DNA of 64,000 bases from NCBI RefSeq assembly GCF_016026235.1, contig NZ_CP065613.1. One strand, given 5' to 3'. Of the stretch, positions 9,092-61,198 are shown in pieces. The translations under genes and the position numbers were made by a program. The notes beneath the pieces are model-generated. The model worked only from the letters and a program-made list of their open reading frames with translations, did not search any database and was not told where the DNA came from. This DNA is from Escherichia coli (GTDB lineage Bacteria > Pseudomonadota > Gammaproteobacteria > Enterobacterales > Enterobacteriaceae). Within the stretch, counting starts at the first letter, position 1. The number at the start of each line of letters is the position of its first letter.

Positions 9092-9274
9092 TCTCTGGCA
9101 CACAGCAACAGGAACGAAAAATGAAGATAGCGACGATAAAAACTGGGCTTGCTTCACTGGCGATGCTGCCGGGACTGGTAATGGCTGCACCTGCGGTGGC
9201 CGATAAAGCCGACAATGCGTTTATGATGATTTGTACTGCGCTGGTGCTGTTTATGACTATTCCGGGGATTGCCC

Positions 9275-10567
9275 CTGAGGGATCCCCAGAAAATTTAGTA
9301 AACCATTATCATATTGGTATACCGTTGCTGTAGAACTTTCAGCCCTGCGTCAAGTGACAGTGTGTTTAGTATGAGTGGAGAATGTCGAATCACATTCTCC
9401 GCCAGTTTTAATAACGAGATGACTCGCCTGTGCTTCACTGTATTTGCCTGATATTTATGATGTATCCCTTTGTTTTCCAGGCTGAAACCGCTTAACCACA
9501 TAATGATACTGGCTAATGTTGCGATCAGACTCAATACCGTGACCCGCCCGGATGAATGACTGGCACCAAACCGTAGTCCAAATCCCCAGCGAGGATTTTT
9601 TCATCCCTGAAATTTTGCTCAATTTGCATTCTACGGCTGTATAATTTCATTACCTGTTTTGGCGAGAACTCAGTACTGTTTGTGAAAATAAACCATGGTG
9701 ATTTCCCGGCAGTACGAGCTTTAGCCGTCACCGATGGTCTGGTTGCTCTTTCCTTCGAGCGTTTAAATCTACGACCTTTAGGCTTACTTTTATAAAGATA
9801 AAAATGCCCTTCATGTTGTGCATTTTTATCTCGACCCAGCAGGCCTTCACCTAAATAAATTGCTGTCGTTGATGCTTTTGTGCCTGAGTCCGACACCTTT
9901 TCCCAGCCATTACCAACATTGTAATAATGATTGCCCAGTACCCGGCAAATATAGGTCCAGCCACGGGAGCGGAGCTGTTGGAACCATCGCCCCTGAAAAC
10001 CGGCATCTGTAATAACAATGACATCAGTCCCGGGGGAAAAGCACTCAGCAAGCGATTCCAGAAAACGCTCATGTACATCTGCATTCGCTGTCTGTGATGA
10101 TGGAACGACACAACTCATCAACGGTAAAGAACGCCCGTCACATGCCAGGCTTGCCCGCAAAAGCTGAAAACGAGAGGCATGATAAGCACTCCAGTCAATG
10201 AGTATCACAACACGAGACATTCCCCGCGTAATCTTTTGGGTAATTCGCTGAAAAATGGTGGAAACCTCATTTTGCAAATGTCGATTCCCCAACAGTCGAT
10301 CCACCCGCTTTATTTTGTTTTTAACTGATGCCGTACCGGTTAAATGACGCCCGATACTGGTAAGTGTGAGGGAAGCGCCATTTATTACAGCATTAGTTGC
10401 GTCAATCAGTGATTTTTGACGGTAAAGATGCAAAGGGGCCAGTATGTTGTTAAGGAAATTTTGGCATAATGAACGTGCAGGCATAGTGGTGATCTCCTTG
10501 AAATTGTTAGCACAATCAATTAGATCACATCTCACTATGCCTGTCTTGTTTTCTGGGGATTCCTCAG
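9275..10567 (-). mobile_element. IS10-like insertion sequence (IS4 family), about 1.29 kb, imperfect terminal inverted repeats CTGAGGGATCCCC / CTGAGGAATCCCC, flanked by direct repeat (G)GGATTGCCC
   Basis: Terminal IRs read directly; flanking duplication at 9265-9274 and 10568-10577; internal transposase with IS4-family Y-R-E-K signature. Confidence 0.88.
9295..10484 (-). CDS. IS4-family (IS10-like) DDE transposase, apparently frameshifted (N-terminal frame 9531..10484, C-terminal frame 9295..about 9579)
   Basis: ORF track 9531..10649 and 9295..9534 both transposase-like, in different frames; YSRRMQIEQNFRDEK signature; AAGGAG SD upstream of ATG at 10484. Confidence 0.8.
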
Positions 10568-11728
10568 GGGATTGCCCTGTTTTACGGTGGGTTGATTCGC
10601 GGCAAAAACGTGCTGTCGATGCTGACGCAGGTGACGGTGACATTTGCACTGGTCTGTATTCTCTGGGTGGTTTACGGTTACTCGCTGGCGTTTGGTGAGG
10701 GCAACAACTTCTTCGGCAACATTAACTGGTTGATGCTGAAAAACATCGAACTGACGGCGGTGATGGGCAGCATTTATCAGTATATCCACGTAGCGTTTCA
10801 GGGATCGTTTGCCTGCATTACCGTAGGCTTGATAGTTGGGGCGCTGGCGGAACGAATCCGCTTCTCAGCTGTGTTGATTTTCGTGGTGGTATGGCTGACG
10901 CTCTCTTACATTCCAATTGCGCATATGGTCTGGGGCGGTGGTTTGCTGGCTTCTCACGGTGCGCTGGATTTCGCGGGTGGCACGGTGGTGCACATTAACG
11001 CCGCAATCGCCGGTCTGGTGGGCGCGTATCTGATAGGAAAACGCGTGGGCTTCGGTAAAGAGGCGTTTAAACCGCACAACCTGCCGATGGTCTTCACCGG
11101 GACTGCCATTCTCTATATCGGTTGGTTTGGCTTTAACGCCGGGTCAGCGGGCACGGCGAATGAAATCGCGGCACTGGCATTTGTGAATACTGTGGTCGCA
11201 ACGGCGGCGGCAATTCTTGGCTGGATCTTCGGTGAATGGGCGCTGCGTGGTAAGCCTTCACTGCTGGGGGCGTGTTCTGGCGCGATTGCCGGTCTGGTCG
11301 GCGTGACGCCAGCCTGTGGCTACATTGGTGTTGGCGGCGCGTTGATTATCGGCGTGGTAGCTGGTCTGGCGGGCTTGTGGGGCGTTACCATGCTCAAACG
11401 CTTGCTGCGGGTGGATGATCCCTGCGATGTCTTCGGTGTGCACGGCGTTTGTGGCATTGTCGGCTGTATCATGACCGGGATTTTTGCCGCCAGCTCGCTG
11501 GGCGGCGTGGGCTTCGCTGAAGGTGTGACGATGGGCCATCAGTTGCTGGTACAGCTGGAAAGCATTGCCATTACGATCGTCTGGTCCGGTGTGGTGGCAT
11601 TTATTGGCTACAAACTGGCGGATCTGACGGTTGGCCTGCGTGTGCCGGAAGAACAAGAGCGAGAAGGGCTGGACGTCAACAGTCACGGCGAGAATGCCTA
11701 TAACGCGTAACAAGCACTGCAAAAAACA

Positions 11729-14524: not shown

Positions 14525-16081
14525 TCACAAATGTTGCTCGGCCCAGCGTAAGAAATCTTCTTTCGGTAATGCCTTGCTGTAGAGCCAGCCCTGACCGTAG
14601 TGCACGCCATGCTGGCGTAGCCACTCTTCTTGTTTACTGGTTTCGATTCCCTCCGCTACCATTTTCAGTTTCAGTGTTTTTGCCATTTCGATGATATGCG
14701 GCGTGACATTTTTATATTCCAGCGCATCAACGAAAGATTTATCGATCTTCAGAATGTCGACATCCAGATCCTGTAAATAACTTAAACTTGAATACCCCGT
14801 ACCAAAATCATCAAGATAAATTTCATGGCCCGCCTCCCGGTAGCGAGAAATTATCGGGGCGCTGGTTTTCGGATCGGCAAACTCGCGTTCAGTGAGTTCA
14901 AGCGCGATCTGTCTGGGATTAACCTGATAGTGATTGATCATTTCACGCAGCAATTGCGGGATTTTTTCCGAGGTGAGCACGGTGGATTCAAGATTGATCG
15001 AAATATGCTGCTGTGGATGCTGACGCAAGCAGTCGCCCATATCTTCAAAGACGCTTCTTATAATCAGTAGCGTCAATGGCTCAGAAAGGCCCGTTTGCTG
15101 TGCCAGCGGAATAAAACTATCTGGTGACAACCAACTACCGTCTGTCTGCGGCCAGCGCGCCAGTGCCTCAGCACCGACAATTTTGCCATTGGCTAAGGAG
15201 ACAATCGGCTGATAGTGCACGCAAATATCACGATTTTCGATAGCATCCTGCAGCCGATGATGCGGTGACTGGATACGGCGCAAAATACGCAGCACAAACA
15301 TCGCTGCCAGCAGGCCAATCACCAACCCGAGCGGTAACCAAATAAAGACTTGCCGATGCCAGCCTTTCTGCAACATTTTCGTTGAAGCCCAGGTGATGAT
15401 CGAAATATTCATCTCCGGGAAGGGCAGGATATCGTAAATGATCCCATTATTTTCGATATGCTCACCGGGTGTTTTTTGTAGCCTGGTAATAATTCCCTGA
15501 GCAATTTCATCGCTGCTGGTTATGACAACGTTATGGGCATTGCCAATAATGGCGGCATCAATTTGCCATGAGCTATAGGGAATGACATCAATAAAGGAAG
15601 CGGGGTCGATCATGACGACATAATGTGCCGTTCCCATGGCGACCATGTAACGGATAATGCCTAAATCGTTATGCGATGTTAACCAGACACGATAACCATC
15701 TTTCGAAATTTTACCTGGCTCGGGAAAGGTATCGGGCGGACTTTCATGCTCCAGAGACGAACACTGGGGAACGTTGTTATCGATATAAACCACTTCCTGA
15801 ATATAGCGATAACTGTAAGATACCCGACGCATTTCCATGAGATGGGCTTCGCTACAGTCAGCGCCTTGCCATCTTTCCAGCTCTTGCAGCGCATCTTTCC
15901 CTTGTGTCGCCACCTTATTGGCCCGAATAGCGACGCGGGAGGAATAGGTATCCAGCTCTTCAATAAACGATGTTTCTACCTGCTGATGGGCCAGCCAGAT
16001 GCTTAAGCCGACAGGCAGCAATACTGAAAGAATCAGTACTCCCGAAATAAGGCCGACCAGATGTCGTGTTCTCACCAGCAT
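14525..16081 (-). CDS. pdeB: c-di-GMP phosphodiesterase PdeB (YlaB), CSS-EAL domain protein
   Basis: ORF track 518 aa; N-terminal TM and periplasmic CSS domain, C-terminal EAL domain (EALARW...). Confidence 0.9.
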   Translation of the reverse strand: MLVRTRHLVGLISGVLILSVLLPVGLSIWLAHQQVETSFIEELDTYSSRVAIRANKVATQGKDALQELERWQGADCSEAHLMEMRRVSYSYRYIQEVVYIDNNVPQCSSLEHESPPDTFPEPGKISKDGYRVWLTSHNDLGIIRYMVAMGTAHYVVMIDPASFIDVIPYSSWQIDAAIIGNAHNVVITSSDEIAQGIITRLQKTPGEHIENNGIIYDILPFPEMNISIITWASTKMLQKGWHRQVFIWLPLGLVIGLLAAMFVLRILRRIQSPHHRLQDAIENRDICVHYQPIVSLANGKIVGAEALARWPQTDGSWLSPDSFIPLAQQTGLSEPLTLLIIRSVFEDMGDCLRQHPQQHISINLESTVLTSEKIPQLLREMINHYQVNPRQIALELTEREFADPKTSAPIISRYREAGHEIYLDDFGTGYSSLSYLQDLDVDILKIDKSFVDALEYKNVTPHIIEMAKTLKLKMVAEGIETSKQEEWLRQHGVHYGQGWLYSKALPKEDFLRWAEQHL

Positions 16082-16238
16082 ATCCTTATTAACACAGTGT
16101 AGGGAAAGTATATCTGATTGTGGAAAAAGGCTGGCAGGAGATAAGGAGGTAGAGCTGGTATTTCATGAAGTGATGGGTGGAAACGATCGTTGTCATTTGA
16201 CCAGGCGCAGAGCTTTACGCCTGGTATGTAATCCTAAC

Positions 16239-16709
16239 TTAAGATGTTGATTCGGCGCGAGCGAGGGTAAAAATATCGTAAAAAGACAGTTCACCTTTAC
16301 GGACGATCATTTTTTGCAGTTGTTCCTTATGAACATCCGCGACACGCGGAGAGTTCAAGATGGCTTCAACCAGCGCGGCAGGTACAAAGCGCGTGTTGTA
16401 CCATTCGCCGTTATAGCAAACGCGGAAATCCAGCACGTCGATATCTTCATAGCGGTAGCGTGGGTAAACATCGAAAAAGAAGAAACCATTAAGCAGGATA
16501 AATAATACAACCAGTAGCCAGACAGAGCCTGAAAGCGTTTCGGATTGCAACATCACCGCCAGGGTGGCAAAAAAAGCGACGTACATACCGATAAACAGCC
16601 CCGGATGTTTACGGATAAAACTGATACTAAAGCGGGGTTTGTTGTCGCGTTTTTCGCGGGTATTCAGAGACTCAATCGTTTCGGTCAGCAGGCGTTGTAT
16701 TTCGGTCAT
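16239..16709 (-). CDS. ylaC: inner membrane protein YlaC
   Basis: 156 aa starting [16 protein letters not shown] inside ORF 16239..16748. Confidence 0.85.
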
Positions 16710-16824
16710 CGTTTGCCTTCGTGGTATCTGCAACTTTCCAGGGAACACCCTATTTTAACGTGGGAATAGTAGAGGGAAAGTAACAGATTTACCACAATTT
16801 TGCATAACAGTTGCGAAAAACCGA

Positions 16825-17376
16825 TTACAATTTTTTGATTATTCTGGCTGGATTACCGCCCACGACAACGTTGTCCGGGACATCTTTTGTGACAACTGCA
16901 CCTGAGGCTACCACGACGTTATCACCAATGGTCACACCAGGGTTAATGACCGCGCGTCCGCCAATCCAGACGTTATTACCGATGGTGACGGGTTTCCCCA
17001 GTTCAGCACCGCTATTACGTGCTACAGGGTCGATGGGATGTGTTGCCGTGTAGATATGAACGCCTGGTGCCAACATACAGTTATCACCGATGCGAATAGG
17101 GCAGACATCAAGCATCACGCAATCGAAGTTGGCGAAAAAATTATTACCGAGAAAAATGTTATAGCCATAGTCACAGCGAAACGTTGGCTCAATATAAGCC
17201 TCTGTCACCTGACCGAATAGATCAGCGAGAATTTGCTGGCGTAATGTGTGCTCTTCCGCCAGGGAATGATTGTATCGGTGAATAAGCTGACGAGCACGCA
17301 GGCGATCGCGAGATAACGTCTCATCTGCCGAGCGATACAACTCACCAGCAATCATCTTTTCTTTTTCTGTGCTCAT
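16825..17376 (-). CDS. maa: maltose O-acetyltransferase (hexapeptide-repeat)
   Basis: ORF track 183 aa; left-handed beta-helix hexapeptide repeats. Confidence 0.92.
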
Positions 17377-17547
17377 TACTGACCTCCGGTTGCTGAAAAT
17401 GCGGCAACACAGTAAGACGAAAAGTCAGTGAAGAGAACGTTCCCATTACATCTGTGTGATAAAGATCACATAGGGTATGTCTTCATGGCGGAAAAGTATA
17501 AAATTCTTAATAAACAGCCAGTTATAGCTCCGAAAGCGAATTATTTA

Positions 17548-17766
17548 TTAGCGAATAAATTTCCATACTGAGGAAGGGATCTTGTCGTACAGTTTATTCA
17601 TGGTCAATTCGGCGAGGCGGTGATCTGCGGCTGAGTAAAATACCGCCAGTTCATTATCTGATAATTCGTATTTATTTTTCTCGATAACACGCTCCAGCGT
17701 GTCAATTGTCTGGCAACGACGTAAACGCATTAAATAATCGGTTTTCGTTAAAGGTTTTTCGGACAT
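17548..17766 (-). CDS. hha: haemolysin expression-modulating protein Hha
   Basis: 72 aa [27 protein letters not shown] inside ORF 17548..18012. Confidence 0.93.
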
Positions 17767-17791
17767 ACTTCTACCCATGGTTGTAATAATT

Positions 17792-18166
17792 CTAACAAGA
17801 TAAACTCGCAGGATTCTCTTTCGTCGCATTGACAAAACAACGGAATAGTCGATTACCTGATTTCCGCCATTTCTGAAGATCCTGCATATTAATACCATAA
17901 CTACTGAACAACATAAAGGTGTCATCCAGATATTCGTCGATCTGCTCAATGAGCTTATTGTCTTCATTATACTTAATTTTGTAATTAAGTGCGAAGGTCG
18001 CAATATGCTCAATCAGTTCATTCAACTGGAGGTTGATCGCCGAGGTTGGGTCGTTAACCCAGCCATGATTGCTTTCTTCAAGGTTTGCAAGGCAGTCATG
18101 ATACAGGGTTTCACAGAGAAACTTAAGCTGTGCGATATCATGTCTTTTGGGTGAGTATTCATCCAT
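17792..18166 (-). CDS. tomB: Hha toxicity modulator TomB (YbaJ)
   Basis: ORF track 124 aa immediately upstream of hha. Confidence 0.9.
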
Positions 18167-18670
18167 AACGCGTCCCCTTCTTAGCGGTTGAACTAACGGA
18201 CACCTTTCGGGATGGAAAAAACTTACTGACCTGGACTTGCCCTCTCGTTTGTTAGCTTAACTATAAGCCACTCTTTGCAGGTTTTCATCGCATTATTACG
18301 AAAAATTACAATTAGGAAGGAATCGGGACAGGACTCACTTTTTCATACTAGCACTAACCCGCAGCAGGTAAAAGCAGTTTGCTCGAACTGTTCATAACAT
18401 TTCAGGATTATCGCCAGATGAAATTGGTGACACTAATACCAGGATTGCTCTGAATATGACGTAATAACCGAGGAATGAATAAAGAATTACCGCAAATAAT
18501 TAAGAATAGCCTCTAAATGATTATGGATTATTAAATCTATTAGCGCTACTTAATATAAATTAACTAACAATCAGTATTTTTTATGAATTTTATCCGTGGT
18601 TAATACTGGTTTTCGTATGAGATCCTGAGTTGGTGGTTCAATTACTCCTTAATGTTCGTAGGTTATGCAT

Positions 18671-18692
18671 AAAAAAGGCCGCTTGCGCGGCC
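18671..18692 (-). terminator. Rho-independent terminator of acrB (GGCCGC-TTGC-GCGGCC with U-tract on minus strand)
   Basis: Perfect GC hairpin preceded on plus strand by AAAAAA, immediately 3' of acrB. Confidence 0.65.
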
Positions 18693-18711
18693 TTAGTGAT
18701 TACACGTTGTA

Positions 18712-21864
<3,153 letters not shown>

Positions 21865-21883
21865 TTAACGGCTCCTGTTTAAG

Positions 21884-23077
21884 TTAAGACTTGGACTGTT
21901 CAGGCTGAGCACCGCTTGCGGCTTGCTGGTTATTATCAGCGGTAACTTCTTGTGCTTTTACCTGGACACCAGGACGCACTTTCTGCAGCCCACTTATTAC
22001 TACGCGATCGCCTGCTTTCAGACCTTCTGTCACCAGCCACTTATCGCCAATAGCCTGGCTTGCAACGATCGGACGGGTTTCCACTTTGTCATCCGCGCCA
22101 ACCACCAGTACGGTGGCATCGCCACGCGGCGTACGGGTTACGCCCTGTTGCGGGACTAAAATAGCGTTTGGATTAAGCCCTTCTTCCAGACGTGCGCGCA
22201 CGAACATACCCGGCAGCAGAGTGTGATCCGGGTTCGGGAAGATAGCGCGTAGGGTGATAGACCCAGTGGTCTGATCAACGGTAACGTCAGAGAATTCCAG
22301 CGTACCGTCCTGCGGGAACTTAATGCCGTCACTGGTGATCAGCGACACTTTGGCTTTGCCGTTCTCTTGTTTCAGCGTGCCATTCGCCAGTTCCTGTTTC
22401 AGGCGCAGGAAGTCGTTGCTGGACTGGGTCACATCAACGTAGATCGGATCAAGTTGCTGCACGGTTGCCAGCGCAGTCGCCTGACCGTTCTGTACCAATG
22501 CGCCTTCCGTCACGTTCGACTTACCAATGCGACCGCTAATCGGAGAGGTGACTTTGGTGTAAGCCAGATTGATCCGCGCAGTTTCAACAGCAGCTTTCGC
22601 CGCAGTTACCGCAGCATTCGCCTGTTGCGCATCAGCCAGAGCCTGATCGTACTCTTGCTTACTGATGTACTGAGTACCGAGCAGTTTCTGATAACGATTC
22701 ACCGTCAATTGCGCGATATTGGCTGCAGCCTGGGCTTTCGCCAGATCACCTTTCGCACTGTCGTATGTCGCCTGATAGGTCGCAGGATCAATCTGATAGA
22801 GAGAGACACCTGCTTCGATGTCGCTACCTTCTTTGAAATTACGCTTCAGGATAATCCCGCTAACTTGAGGACGAACTTCTGCGATCCGGTAGGCACTGGT
22901 GCGACCCGGAAGCTCGGTTGTGATCTGCAGAGGTTCAGTTTTGACTGTTACTACGCCAACGGCGGGCATCTGCTGGCCACCTTGTTGGGCCTGTTTGTCG
23001 TCACATCCTGTTAGGGCTAAGCTGCCTGAGAGCATCAGAACGACCGCCAGAGGCGTAAACCCTCTGTTTTTGTTCAT
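21884..23077 (-). CDS. acrA: RND efflux periplasmic adaptor AcrA
   Basis: 397 aa starting MNKNRGFTPLAVVLMLSGSLALTGC (lipobox) inside ORF 21884..23113. Confidence 0.95.
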   Translation of the reverse strand: MNKNRGFTPLAVVLMLSGSLALTGCDDKQAQQGGQQMPAVGVVTVKTEPLQITTELPGRTSAYRIAEVRPQVSGIILKRNFKEGSDIEAGVSLYQIDPATYQATYDSAKGDLAKAQAAANIAQLTVNRYQKLLGTQYISKQEYDQALADAQQANAAVTAAKAAVETARINLAYTKVTSPISGRIGKSNVTEGALVQNGQATALATVQQLDPIYVDVTQSSNDFLRLKQELANGTLKQENGKAKVSLITSDGIKFPQDGTLEFSDVTVDQTTGSITLRAIFPNPDHTLLPGMFVRARLEEGLNPNAILVPQQGVTRTPRGDATVLVVGADDKVETRPIVASQAIGDKWLVTEGLKAGDRVVISGLQKVRPGVQVKAQEVTADNNQQAASGAQPEQSKS

Positions 23078-23166
23078 ATGTAAACCTCGAGTGTCCGATT
23101 TCAAATTGGTCAATGGTCAAAAGTTAATAAACCCATTGCTGCGTTTATATTATCGTCGTGCTATGG

Positions 23167-23190
23167 TACATACATTCACAAATGTATGTA
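23167..23190. promoter_or_regulatory. AcrR operator, 24 bp inverted repeat TACATACATTCACAAATGTATGTA in the acrR/acrAB divergent promoter region
   Basis: Near-perfect palindrome read directly between acrA and acrR starts. Confidence 0.8.
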
Positions 23191-23218
23191 AATCTAACGC
23201 CTGTAAATTCACGAACAT

Positions 23219-23866
23219 ATGGCACGAAAAACCAAACAAGAAGCGCAAGAAACGCGCCAACACATCCTCGATGTGGCTCTACGTCTTTTCTCACAGCAGG
23301 GGGTATCATCCACCTCGCTGGGCGAGATTGCAAAAGCAGCTGGCGTTACGCGCGGTGCAATCTACTGGCATTTTAAAGACAAGTCGGATTTGTTCAGTGA
23401 GATCTGGGAACTGTCAGAATCCAATATTGGTGAACTAGAGCTTGAGTATCAGGCAAAATTCCCTGGCGATCCACTCTCAGTATTAAGAGAGATATTAATT
23501 CATGTTCTTGAATCCACGGTGACAGAAGAACGGCGTCGATTATTGATAGAGATTATATTCCACAAATGCGAATTTGTCGGAGAAATGGCTGTTGTGCAAC
23601 AGGCACAACGTAATCTCTGTCTGGAAAGTTATGACCGTATAGAACAAACGTTAAAACATTGTATTGAAGCGAAAATGTTGCCTGCGGATTTAATGACGCG
23701 TCGCGCAGCAATTATTATGCGCGGCTATATTTCCGGCCTGATGGAAAACTGGCTCTTTGCCCCGCAATCTTTTGATCTTAAAAAAGAAGCCCGCGATTAC
23801 GTTGCCATCTTACTGGAGATGTATCTCCTGTGCCCCACGCTTCGTAATCCTGCCATTACCGAATAA
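23219..23866 (+). CDS. acrR: TetR-family repressor AcrR
   Basis: ORF track 215 aa; N-terminal TetR HTH. Confidence 0.95.
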
Positions 23867-23993
23867 CCCTGAATCTGACTCCAGGATTTTTCCTGGACAT
23901 TTTCGTCGTTGCTATTCTGGTTCACTGCGCCGTGATATTCTTGCGGTTTGACTTTTTCAGGTCGTTCTTCAGGTTCAGAAACCTTCATTCATC

Positions 23994-26900
23994 ATGACTA
24001 TGTTCCAGTATTACAAACGATCACGGCATTTTGTTTTTTCAGCATTTATTGCTTTTGTTTTTGTCTTGTTATGCCAGAACACGGCGTTTGCGCGGGCGTC
24101 ATCGAATGGTGATTTACCGACAAAAGCGGACCTGCAGGCGCAACTTGACTCACTAAATAAACAAAAAGATCTTTCTGCTCAGGACAAACTGGTGCAGCAG
24201 GATCTGACAGATACATTAGCCACCCTCGATAAAATCGATCGCGTAAAAGAAGAGACCGTTCAGCTACGGCAAAAAGTCGCTGAAGCGCCGGAAAAAATGC
24301 GCCAGGCGACCGCGGCGTTAACAGCACTTAGCGATGTCGATAACGACGAAGAAACGCGCAAAATTCTGAGCACGCTTTCGTTGCGCCAGCTGGAAACTCG
24401 CGTTGCCCAGGCGCTGGACGATTTGCAAAACGCACAAAACGATCTGGCGTCTTATAACAGCCAGCTGGTTTCGTTACAGACGCAGCCCGAACGCGTGCAA
24501 AATGCGATGTATAACGCTTCGCAGCAGCTGCAACAAATTCGCAGTCGTCTGGATGGGACTGATGTCGGCGAGACTGCCTTACGTCCCAGCCAGAAAGTGT
24601 TAATGCAGGCTCAGCAGGCGTTGCTGAATGCGGAGATTGACCAGCAACGTAAAAGCCTGGAAGGGAATACCGTCTTGCAGGATACCTTGCAAAAGCAACG
24701 TGATTACGTGACGGCGAACAGCGCCCGTCTGGAGCACCAGTTGCAGCTGTTGCAAGAAGCGGTAAACAGCAAGCGCCTGACTTTAACCGAAAAAACGGCG
24801 CAGGAAGCCGTCTCCCCGGATGAAGCCGCGCGTATTCAGGCTAATCCGCTGGTGAAGCAGGAACTGGAAATTAACCAGCAGTTGAGTCAGCGTCTGATTA
24901 CCGCGACTGAAAACGGTAATCAGTTGATGCAGCAAAACATTAAAGTCAAAAACTGGCTGGAGCGGGCGCTGCAATCGGAACGCAATATTAAAGAGCAGAT
25001 TGCCGTCTTGAAGGGCAGCCTGCTGTTATCTCGTATCCTTTACCAGCAACAACAAACGCTGCCCTCGGCGGATGAACTGGAAAACATGACCAACCGCATC
25101 GCGGATTTGCGTCTCGAACAGTTTGAAGTTAACCAGCAGCGTGATGCACTCTTCCAGAGCGATGCGTTCGTCAACAAACTGGAAGAAGGTCACACCAACG
25201 AAGTCAACAGCGAAGTTCACGATGCGTTATTGCAAGTGGTTGATATGCGTCGCAAATTGCTGGATCAACTCAACAAACAGTTGGGTAACCAGCTGATGAT
25301 GGCCATTAACCTGCAAATCAACCAGCAGCAGTTAATGAGCGTATCGAAAAACCTGAAATCCATCCTGACTCAGCAAATCTTTTGGGTGAACAGTAACCGT
25401 CCAATGGACTGGGACTGGATCAAAGCGTTCCCGCAAAGCCTGAAAGATGAATTTAAGTCGATGAAAATTACGGTGAACTGGGAAAAAGCCTGGCCCGCCG
25501 TTTTTATCGCTTTCCTCGCCGGTTTGCCGCTGCTGTTGATTGCCGGGCTGATCCACTGGCGTCTGGGCTGGCTGAAAGCGTATCAACAGAAACTGGCTTC
25601 CGCTGTGGGTTCCCTGCGTAACGACAGTCAGCTCAACACACCAAAAGCGATCCTTATCGACCTGATCCGTGCGCTGCCGGTGTGCCTGATTATTCTCGCG
25701 GTTGGCCTGATTCTGTTGACCATGCAGCTCAACATCAGCGAACTGCTATGGTCGTTCAGTAAAAAACTGGCGATTTTCTGGCTGGTGTTTGGCCTGTGCT
25801 GGAAGGTACTGGAGAAAAATGGCGTTGCCGTGCGTCACTTCGGCATGCCGGAGCAGCAGACCAGCCACTGGCGTCGGCAAATTGTCCGCATCAGTCTCGC
25901 GTTGCTGCCTATCCATTTCTGGTCTGTGGTGGCAGAACTTTCCCCGCTGCATCTGATGGATGATGTGCTGGGGCAGGCGATGATTTTCTTCAACCTGCTG
26001 CTGATTGCCTTCCTGGTATGGCCAATGTGCCGCGAAAGCTGGCGTGATAAAGAGTCGCACACCATGCGACTGGTCACCATTACCGTGCTGTCGATTATCC
26101 CGATTGCATTGATGGTGCTGACTGCCACGGGTTATTTCTACACCACGCTGCGCCTCTCCGGGCGTTGGATTGAAACCGTTTATCTGGTGATCATCTGGAA
26201 CTTGCTCTACCAGACGGTATTGCGCGGCTTAAGCGTAGCGGCGCGGCGTATCGCCTGGCGTCGTGCGCTGGCGCGTCGGCAGAATCTGGTGAAAGAGGGC
26301 GCAGAAGGTGCCGAACCGCCGGAAGAACCCACCATTGCACTGGAACAGGTTAACCAGCAGACGCTGCGTATTACCATGTTGCTGATGTTTGCGCTGTTCG
26401 GTGTCATGTTCTGGGCAATTTGGTCCGATTTGATCACCGTGTTCAGCTATCTCGACAGCATTACGCTGTGGCATTACAACGGTACTGAAGCTGGTGCTGC
26501 GGTGGTGAAAAACGTCACCATGGGTAGTCTGTTGTTTGCGATTATCGCCTCAATGGTGGCCTGGGCGTTGATTCGCAACCTGCCTGGTTTGCTGGAAGTG
26601 CTGGTGCTCTCGCGACTGAATATGCGCTAGGGCGCGTCGTATGCCATTACTACCATCCTTAACTACATCATTATTGCTGTTGGTGCGATGACGGTGTTCG
26701 GATCGCTGGGCGTCTCTTGGGATAAACTCCAGTGGCTGGCAGCAGCATTATCCGTAGGTCTTGGTTTTGGTTTACAAGAAATTTTCGGTAACTTCGTCTC
26801 CGGTTTGATCATTCTATTCGAACGTCCGGTGCGTATTGGCGATACGGTAACCATTGGTAGCTTCTCGGGGACGGTAAGTAAGATCCGTATTCGTGCGACA

Positions 26901-45673: not shown

Positions 45674-46015
45674 ATGAAACAGGCAACAAGAAAACCGACG
45701 ACACCCGGAGATATTCTTCTCTATGAATATCTGGAACCGCTCGCTTTGAAAATCAATGAGTTAGCAGAGTTGCTGCATGTTCATCGTAATAGCGTCAGTA
45801 CACTGATCAATAATAATCGTAAACTCACCACTGAAATGGCATTCCGTCTGGCGAAAGTTTTTGATACCACAGTCGATTTTTGGCTAAACCTTCAGGCGGC
45901 AGTTGATCTTTGGGAAGTTGAAAACAACATGCGCACCCAGGAAGAATTGGGACGGATTGAAACAGTGGCTGAATATTTGGCACGCCGTGAAGAGCGTGCA
46001 AAAAAGGTCGCGTAA
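45674..46015 (+). CDS. ybaQ: XRE-family HTH protein YbaQ (HigA-like)
   Basis: 113 aa starting MKQATRKPTTPGDILLYEYLEPL inside ORF 45620..46015. Confidence 0.88.
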   Translation: MKQATRKPTTPGDILLYEYLEPLALKINELAELLHVHRNSVSTLINNNRKLTTEMAFRLAKVFDTTVDFWLNLQAAVDLWEVENNMRTQEELGRIETVAEYLARREERAKKVA

Positions 46016-48901: not shown

Positions 48902-49096
48902 TCAAGAAATTAATAAACCAGGCGAGTAAAAGTCCGTAAAGATTAAAAAATTGGCTCAATTTGCATCAGGATTAGACATTTATCTCTTTGTTTTCCTGTA
49001 GTTAAGTTGCGGGTGCTAAGTTAAATCAGGATGCCTGAAAATCGGCACCGGGGTGAGGAATTACCTCCCGCATCTATAAAAAGGAGTTAACAAAAG

Positions 49097-60286: not shown

Positions 60287-60302
60287 TGACTGGTGTTAGA
60301 TT

Positions 60303-60602
<300 letters not shown>

Positions 60603-60703
60603 TGAACAGTGTGCATTTTGGCAATAAATCTGAAACCAACTGTCATGTCGGTTTTTTAAAGGCCGAAGGTGGTAAACCTTCGGCCTTAGCTACGTTTCCT
60701 CAG

Positions 60704-60787
60704 TTATTCAATAAACTGACGGATCAGTTCCAGCAGCGCGATTAGCGCCTTAAGCACGATGAGAACTTTATCGAGAAAAGTTTTCAT
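60704..60787 (-). CDS. candidate type I toxin: 27 aa hydrophobic/amphipathic peptide MKTFLDKVLIVLKALIALLELIRQFIE (DinQ/TisB-like)
   Basis: Hand-translated ORF with strong SD AAGGGAG 6 nt upstream of ATG, SD embedded in perfect palindrome CTCCCTTAAGGGAG; central ALIALLELIR segment resembles DinQ as I recall it; not in the ORF track (under 60 aa). Confidence 0.45.
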   Translation of the reverse strand: MKTFLDKVLIVLKALIALLELIRQFIE

Positions 60788-61046
60788 CCGTTGCTCCCTT
60801 AAGGGAGAAAGACAATCACAGCTTACCCTTACGTTGCCTGTAACTATGATTTTCTTCATGTGCTAGATGAGGACTGCCTCTCTCCAAATTAGAGCACCAG
60901 AATCAGCACCACCTGTATCCTGACCAGGACTTAAAAGTACTTTTCCGCACTGCGGTAATCCCTTGAGGCAGTATCACTACTAGCGTCGGGATTGTATCGC
61001 CAACATAGCTGTTTGAATATGTAGGCATCCTGACTTATAATTCACT

Positions 61047-61137
61047 TGCTAGATGAGGACTGTTTCATTTCTGCCCGGAACCACCAAGTCTTGGGCGGAA
61101 AAAATAAAAAAACCGACTGTCATGTCGGTTTTTTTAT
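61047..61137 (+). ncRNA. candidate antitoxin sRNA (about 90 nt), divergent from the toxin ORF; its 5' end carries a 16 nt box identical to 60861-60876 and hence complementary to the minus-strand toxin leader
   Basis: Near-consensus sigma70 promoter TTGAAT (61013-18), 17 nt spacer, TATAAT (61036-41); transcript would start about 61044-61048 and end at hairpin AACCGAC-TGTCAT-GTCGGTT plus 7 T (61111-61137). Confidence 0.45.
61111..61137. terminator. bidirectional Rho-independent terminator (A-tract, hairpin, T-tract) shared by selU (minus) and the candidate sRNA (plus)
   Basis: AAAAAAACCGAC TGTCAT GTCGGTTTTTTT read directly. Confidence 0.75.
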
Positions 61138-61198
61138 ATCTGTATTCTGGTGCAACCATTCTGTTCTCACGACAATCGCCGTTTCAGAATACCGCCCA

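Follow-up and report, generated by a model that had tools for sequence, protein, structure and literature searches.

The AT-rich tomB-hha operon downstream of acrAB in Escherichia coli: a core locus, most probably inherited vertically

The closest described systems to the locus analysed here are the tomB (ybaJ)-hha operon of E. coli K-12 and the ymoB-ymoA pair of Yersinia. Published work describes Hha as a partner of H-NS which, on binding it, enhances the silencing of AT-rich genes. In E. coli, ybaJ and hha are separated by 25 bp and are co-transcribed; the overproduction of Hha is toxic, and this toxicity is attenuated by TomB (PMC2408971). The mechanism put forward for the neutralisation is a transient contact of TomB/YmoB with Hha, promoting the oxygen-dependent oxidation of Hha Cys18, with the consequent destabilisation of Hha (PMC5155140). 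Unlike this transient-interaction model, the Salmonella pair has been assigned type II-like properties, with a stable complex and promoter binding by TomB (PMC5133643), while in Yersinia YmoA was found not to be toxic and YmoB to be no antitoxin (PMC11825884). A further group of relatives is found on plasmids, where the hha homologues (R27 hha, R100 rmoA and their relatives) fall within the Pfam family of chromosomal Hha and are 55-68% identical to it. These plasmid copies lack a tomB partner, TomB being present in 14 records only, mostly chromosome-sized.

The window, that is, the whole stretch of 64,000 nucleotides of E. coli DNA which was analysed, is best matched by the genome of FDAARGOS_943 (99.9%) and represents a non-K-12 strain, whose tomB differs at one base. 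Transfer of the annotation from NZ_CP065615.1, the genome closest to the window (99.9%), gave the following gene map:

16825-17376, minus strand: maa
17548-17766, minus strand: hha, 72 aa, the pair's 'toxin' and a co-repressor acting with H-NS, with Cys18 and Asp48 present
17767..17791, minus strand: tomB-hha junction of the bicistron, 25 nt
17792-18166, minus strand: tomB (ybaJ), 124 aa, first gene of the operon, modulator of Hha or 'antitoxin'
18712-21861, minus strand: acrB
21884-23077, minus strand: acrA

Profile and structure comparisons agreed with the preliminary description of hha and tomB at 17548-18166, in which both the coordinates and the gene calls were exact. The hha product matched PF05321 (E=8e-40, 135 bits, cut-off 25) and NCBIfam PRK10945 (169 bits, cut-off 90), while the tomB product matched PF10757 (E=1e-65, 220 bits, cut-off 25) and the NCBIfam equivalog for TomB, NF007948 (234 bits, cut-off 108). 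As regards Asp48 of Hha, we take this residue to have a role in binding the N-terminal domain of H-NS and in stronger silencing. Over its full length, Hha matched PDB 1JW2 / 2MW2 (E=1e-44), being nearly identical to 1JW2; structures of the protein together with H-NS are available as 2MW2 and, for Salmonella, 4ICG. TomB aligned with the YmoB structure 2MN2 (E=2e-50). In YmoB, roles have been assigned to a buried Cys18 and to the pocket residues K15, E19, F108 and F111 (PMC5155140); in an alignment of relatives Cys18 of TomB was invariant and K15 and E19 nearly invariant, and the protein encoded in the window has both F108 and F111. An open reading frame of 154 aa (17548-18012) was rejected as a gene, being the hha frame extended 5' across tomB.

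The four genes are transcribed in the order acrA, acrB, tomB, hha, all from the minus strand, and the pair lies 3' of acrAB, flanked by spacers which end at the maa start (17377-17547) and at the acrB stop (18167-18711). It had been located 'upstream of acrAB', a position to be corrected, since in terms of transcription it is found downstream, beyond the acrB terminator (18694-18675). The genes, their order, the 25-nt spacing and the place after acrAB are those of the K-12 operon and of ymoBA; the published promoter hexamers are shared as well, a CpxR-type box lies upstream as in ymoBA, and no substantive difference was found. It is practically certain, then, that this is the ordinary chromosomal tomB-hha operon of E. 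coli, and all of its main features correspond to known biology which has already been described.

The comparison with type II modules such as relBE and mazEF reveals likenesses in the small bicistron, the 'antitoxin' gene in first place, the short spacing, the negative autoregulation and the toxicity of overproduced Hha. In fact, two small adjacent genes on the same strand, encoding 124 aa and 72 aa and separated by 25 nt, represent the layout of a toxin-antitoxin module. Nevertheless, the 'toxin' of tomB-hha is a nucleoid co-repressor and not an enzyme hitting translation or replication, and its neutralisation reportedly proceeds by transient contact and Cys18 oxidation rather than through a tight complex (PMC5155140). 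Moreover, the patchy, multi-copy or mobile distribution of such modules was not observed, tomB-hha being core, single-copy and syntenic (5424/5426 genomes), with TomB off genuine plasmids, and the Yersinia pair does not behave as a toxin-antitoxin system (PMC11825884). From the literature, tomB-hha can be described as an atypical toxin-antitoxin-like module, although this is contested: the term, which the preliminary description had also used, has backing for E. coli and Salmonella (PMC2408971, PMC5155140, PMC5133643) and is disputed for the Yersinia orthologues (PMC11825884).

The 545-bp spacer between acrB and tomB was aligned across 21 genera, and three conserved elements (terminator, promoter and an 18-mer) emerged within an indel-rich, poorly conserved, AT-rich stretch. 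From acrB towards tomB, the features are:

18675..18694, minus strand: acrB intrinsic terminator, AAGGCCGCGCAAGCGGCCTT plus a T run, conserved in each of the 21 aligned genera, separating acrAB from tomB-hha
18312..18674, minus strand: AT-rich upstream spacer, poorly conserved in sequence, with length and base composition conserved across genera
18294..18311, minus strand: conserved 18-mer TTGTAATTTTTCGTAATA, just upstream of the -35, in 75/80 loci
18309..18295, minus strand: GTAAT-N5-GTAAT direct repeat, a candidate CpxR-type box, centred about 49 nt upstream of the presumed start
18260..18288, minus strand: predicted sigma-70 promoter of tomB-hha, with -35 ATGAAA (18288..18283), a 17-nt spacer and -10 TATAGT (18265..18260), 9/12 match
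18167..18253, minus strand: putative 5' leader of about 87 nt, delimited from the -10 position and the 21-genus alignment, with the conserved blocks CCATCCC and the ribosome-binding site AAGGGGA

The hexamer TATAGT and its surrounding bases were invariant in the 21-genus alignment, and transcription would start at about 18253, as placed from the position of the -10. The same hexamers were identified by genomic SELEX with RNA polymerase and listed as the constitutive promoter for tomB-hha (PMC3946193). In addition, the predicted promoter falls inside the -198 to -1 fragment upstream of ybaJ, described as an active promoter repressed by Hha (PMC2408971). A promoter-like site within tomB (17995..17966, 10/12) is not claimed as an internal hha promoter, its -10 being kept in only 21/81 loci. 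Small open reading frames of 40 and 44 aa in the 545-bp spacer were likewise dismissed, as these segments are full of intergeneric indels.

The consensus recognised by CpxR is GTAAA-N5-GTAAA, and the direct repeat matches it at 8/10 positions. Even the loose pattern GTAAN-N5-GTAAN occurs at only 2 sites in the whole window, considering both strands, and Erwinia keeps GTAATTTTTAGTAAG at -147 from the tomB start, as against -143 in E. coli. RegulonDB names both genes of the pair among the targets of CpxR, and the CpxR iModulon includes tomB, which is absent from the ChIP-exo list of direct CpxR targets (PMC7657598). In Yersinia, CpxR~P binds a conserved motif of the ymoBA promoter, raising its activity (PMC13353760). 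The candidate box, as read from the sequence, would fit this published CpxR control of tomB-hha.

On the other side of the pair lies the shorter spacer:

17377..17547, minus strand: hha-maa spacer, 171 bp, 39.2% GC, most simply the maa promoter region

It holds, at 17455-17470, a perfect CRP core TGTGA-N6-TCACA, TGTGATAAAGATCACA, of which the window has no other example; in 39/71 related loci this spacer likewise contains a perfect core. No terminator-like site was found after hha on the minus strand, and an Rfam scan of 16000-24000 at E<=1 gave no RNA family in either spacer. To judge from its sequence, the 171-bp spacer would most simply serve as the promoter region of maa.

With respect to base composition, the block 17377-18711 contains 39.1% GC, compared with 52.2% for the window, the lowest value of any 1.3-kb stretch. 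Throughout the whole window, only 0.19% of the 1335-bp windows are as low in GC as the block, every one of them overlapping it. The claim of an AT-rich block therefore stands, its composition being clearly different from that of the flanking core genes. Among the 55 genes of the window (mean 52.1%, sd 4.5), tomB is the lowest in GC (40.3%) and hha the third-lowest (40.6%), both about -2.6 sd from the mean. The same tendency is seen at third codon positions, with a GC3 of 45.6% for tomB and 45.2% for hha as against a gene mean of 57.1% in the window. In turn, GC2 is very low (28.8% for tomB and 32.9% for hha), which reflects residue composition. The preliminary description had also mentioned long AT-rich flanking spacers, and this holds only in part: no spacer of the window is longer than the 545-bp one, but the 171-bp spacer is of ordinary length (median 141 bp), and neither is a GC outlier, with 38.0% and 39.2% occupying the 7th and 11th lowest ranks, respectively, among 43 spacers (mean 46.3%, sd 8.0). 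An unusual point of the locus is that its coding sequences are as AT-rich as its spacers.

Low GC, reported H-NS binding (in the spacer) and Hha-dependent repression are traits which the locus shares with H-NS-silenced islands such as Salmonella SPI-1, the LEE and the bgl region of E. coli. Nevertheless, the tomB-hha block differs from these in covering only 1.3 kb, with no mobility genes alongside, in being near-universal at the same position across families and in its maintained composition.

This maintenance becomes apparent when the relatives are considered. Throughout 68 loci, the acrB-tomB spacer measures 435-660 bp (mean 508) and contains 37.7% GC irrespective of the GC of the flanks. 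GC is 42.0% for tomB and 40.5% for hha, compared with 54.7% for acrB and 53.7% for the flanks, GC3 is 41.9% for hha and 66.0% for acrB, and both genes lie at least 8 points under flank GC in 66/68 loci. In Erwinia, tomB-hha show 40.7% and 40.6% GC versus 54.5%, and even in Proteus, where the flank has 40% GC, the pair still dips to 35-36% and the spacer to 26%. Fourfold-degenerate sites were also pooled from 16 genera and compared with E. coli, the species not being independent and the two short genes contributing only small numbers of pooled sites, 428 and 536. Identity to E. coli at these sites is 0.36 for hha, with a GC of 0.47, and 0.48 for tomB, with a GC of 0.57, whereas the neighbours give 0.34 and 0.69 (maa) and 0.57 and 0.68 (acrB). 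The synonymous sites of hha and tomB have thus diverged about as much as those of maa and yet are AT-biased, and therefore the composition would be maintained and is not a residue of import. A passive foreign relic would be expected to drift to the composition of the host, so that the persistence of the AT bias is the opposite of what unameliorated DNA predicts. We infer that either selection or a lasting local bias keeps the locus AT-rich, the fourfold data being support for this and not proof. Causes other than selection for H-NS binding, for instance a local bias in mutation or weak GC-biased gene conversion, could account for it, and we give about even chances to selection for H-NS/Hha binding as the reason.

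The involvement of H-NS itself, proposed in the preliminary description, finds support in published work. An in vitro H-NS genomic-SELEX site has been flagged, as a table entry, for the spacer between tomB and acrB (PMC3946193), Hha acts as a repressor of its own operon at the tomB-hha promoter (PMC2408971), and in a Yersinia ymoA mutant ymoB is up 81-fold (PMC8369931). In the sequence, a search for the high-affinity H-NS 10-mer TCGATAAATT with up to 2 mismatches gave one 2-mismatch hit in the block, with no local enrichment.

This last result, together with the GC2 values and the modest ranks of the two spacers, favours an explanation in which the AT-richness has no regulatory meaning and results from the residue composition of the two proteins, both small and helical, together with weak codon bias and the high AT content that promoter-bearing spacers normally have. 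However, GC at fourfold sites is independent of amino-acid choice, and it lies 11-21 points under both neighbours, including maa at 0.69; the spacer has conserved its length and composition but not its sequence; and Hha-dependent autorepression and an H-NS SELEX site have been published (PMC2408971, PMC8369931, PMC3946193). Such an explanation is consequently regarded as improbable.

The distribution of the locus bears on its origin. The segment 17300-18800 was found at >=95% identity in 5424/5426 complete E. coli genomes, with a median of one copy and with maa, hha, tomB and acrB annotated. A scan with one genome per species revealed TomB relatives in 344 species, and the loci of the best 80 of these 344 species, all Enterobacteriaceae from about 25 genera, were examined, the families beyond Enterobacteriaceae being represented by four loci found by other routes. 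Among the best 80 of 344, in every Enterobacteriaceae locus with sufficient flank acrB is followed by some 0.5 kb of spacer and then by tomB and hha, usually with maa next. For instance, the order in Klebsiella is acrA-acrB-tomB-hha-maa-ylaC. In Proteus mirabilis, an acrB homologue and a 660-bp spacer precede tomB, hha, tesB and amtB; in Providencia the order is tomB-hha-ybaY-tesB-mdlBA; and in Erwinia amylovora acrAB is followed by a 4-kb insertion and then by tomB-hha-MGMT-ybaY-tesB-amtB-glnK-mdlBA. In the window, the genes which neighbour the pair in Erwinia, Proteus and Providencia are those lying left of hha. The pair thus keeps its chromosomal neighbourhood across three families (Enterobacteriaceae, Erwiniaceae and Morganellaceae). 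An apparent divergent hha in an odd context in Enterobacter sp. EA-1 was rejected, as it comes from a frameshift-ridden assembly with the normal order acrB-tomB-hha-maa-ylaC.

With regard to mobility, no integrase or tRNA gene adjoining tomB-hha is annotated and no mobility signature such as an integrase, a tRNA gene, an IS or direct repeats was found between maa and acrB; the nearest IS is in amtB, about 7 kb from the pair. Hha homologues with 55-68% identity appear in >5000 plasmid records, mostly conjugative, while the plasmid collection has just 14 entries with TomB, the majority of which are chromosome-sized and had been classed as plasmids. Hence the Hha family is mobile and the tomB-hha pair is not. 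We are highly confident that tomB-hha is a core, vertically inherited locus and not the product of recent horizontal transfer.

The view that the block is horizontally acquired DNA, as in the preliminary description, silenced by H-NS as foreign and AT-rich as a leftover from its donor, can point to the block being richer in AT than any other 1.3 kb of the window, to the abundance of Hha homologues on plasmids and to the fact that the named TomB homologues among the matches listed are all from Enterobacterales, which makes it possible that the block was acquired when the order arose, but it is very unlikely and, for any recent event, largely refuted by the core, single-copy status in E. coli, the synteny across three families, the lack of TomB on genuine plasmids and of mobility or tRNA genes beside the pair, and the synonymous sites, diverged about like those of maa and still AT-biased, although in a passive relic they would be expected to have approached the base composition of the host.

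Taken as a whole, then, the locus is probably a core tomB-hha operon, transmitted by vertical inheritance in Enterobacterales, with a maintained AT-richness and with a proposed H-NS/Hha feedback and CpxR input. In such an operon, acrAB transcription would stop at its own terminator (18694-18675) and, about 390 nt past it, the sigma-70 promoter (18288-18260) would direct the synthesis of the leader of about 87 nt, tomB, the 25-nt spacer and hha. The AT-rich spacer and coding region might act as the substrate for H-NS/Hha filaments, and the silencing of its own operon by H-NS/Hha would establish a negative feedback controlling how much co-repressor is made, and CpxR may supply a positive input under envelope stress.

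In a further step, the AT-richness could be thought of as selected across Enterobacterales, with the operon acting as a gauge of silencing capacity: the titration of H-NS/Hha, e.g. by incoming AT-rich DNA, would lead to de-repression and, in turn, to more Hha. This proposal is tentative and we consider it rather doubtful. If true, its new part would be the composition maintained under sequence turnover and the use of the operon as a titration sensor, autorepression having already been published.

What is mildly new in the present analysis is the AT bias kept family-wide at heavily diverged synonymous sites, which is a lead for modest follow-up and not a discovery. These results underline a general caution: low GC and H-NS binding alone are no proof of horizontal acquisition, since a highly conserved small enteric operon can look 'foreign'. 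Moreover, the diverged, AT-biased synonymous sites and a spacer which has conserved length and composition without sequence provide a small testable lead, namely that the level of an H-NS co-repressor may be tied to the silencing load of the cell.

Beside the tomB-hha operon of Escherichia coli, the spacer between hha and maa contains the sole perfect CRP core within the window, TGTGA-N6-TCACA at 17455-17470. Of 71 related loci, 39 retain a perfect core in this spacer, and CRP probably acts here on the maa promoter. Inside tomB, a strong promoter-like match (TTCGCA-18-TATAAT, 10/12) lies at 17966-17995 (-), about 200 nt upstream of hha, and an RNA polymerase SELEX peak is tabulated for the hha-tomB interval, without its sequence (PMC3946193). 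Since its -10 element is retained in only 21 of 81 loci, this site may be lineage-specific or due to chance. As regards the CpxR-type box of the tomB-hha promoter, the only other occurrence of GTAAN-N5-GTAAN in the window is GTAAAAGTCCGTAAA at 48926-48940 (+), in the divergent copA-glsA spacer, which agrees perfectly with the CpxR consensus, GTAAA-N5-GTAAA.

In E. coli and E. albertii, the spacer between acrB and tomB contains, directly after the acrB terminator, an additional stretch of some 60 nt (18597-18655); this stretch is missing from most other genera. In Erwinia amylovora (locus L087, 3950-8000), acrB and tomB are separated by an insert of about 4 kb, which encodes L31 and L36 ribosomal protein paralogues as well as a ZnuA-type ABC transporter; the tomB promoter box is present, and its distance from tomB is unchanged. 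Klebsiella has its type B L31 and L36 genes, as annotated, on the opposite side of the locus, after ylaC.

Elsewhere in the window, amtB is interrupted by a mobile element:

9121-11710, amtB, split at about 9275-10566 by an IS4-like element of the ISEc60 family, transposase on the minus strand

The 1.3-kb element has 22-nt inverted repeats (9272-9293 and 10549-10570) and is bordered by a target duplication around GGGGATTGCCC, with copies at 9264-9274 and 10567-10577. This insertion in amtB is present in none of the 5426 complete E. coli genomes. A query spanning the interrupted gene, which consists mostly of the element, matched 36 places in the closest genome, NZ_CP065615.1.

Two further genes of toxin-antitoxin type are annotated:

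45674-46015 (+), ybaQ, HigA-family antitoxin by annotation
60704-60787 (-), DinQ-type type I toxin gene of 27 codons, from the annotation of the closest genome

The GC content of ybaQ (44.2%) is the fourth-lowest among the window's genes, and no toxin gene is annotated beside it in the closest genome. The DinQ-type gene is placed between ybbP and mnmH, flanked by unusually long spacers (60287-60703, 417 bp; 60788-61198, 411 bp). In K-12, rhsD is tabulated after ybbP (PMC3946193), and the ybbP junction therefore differs between strains.
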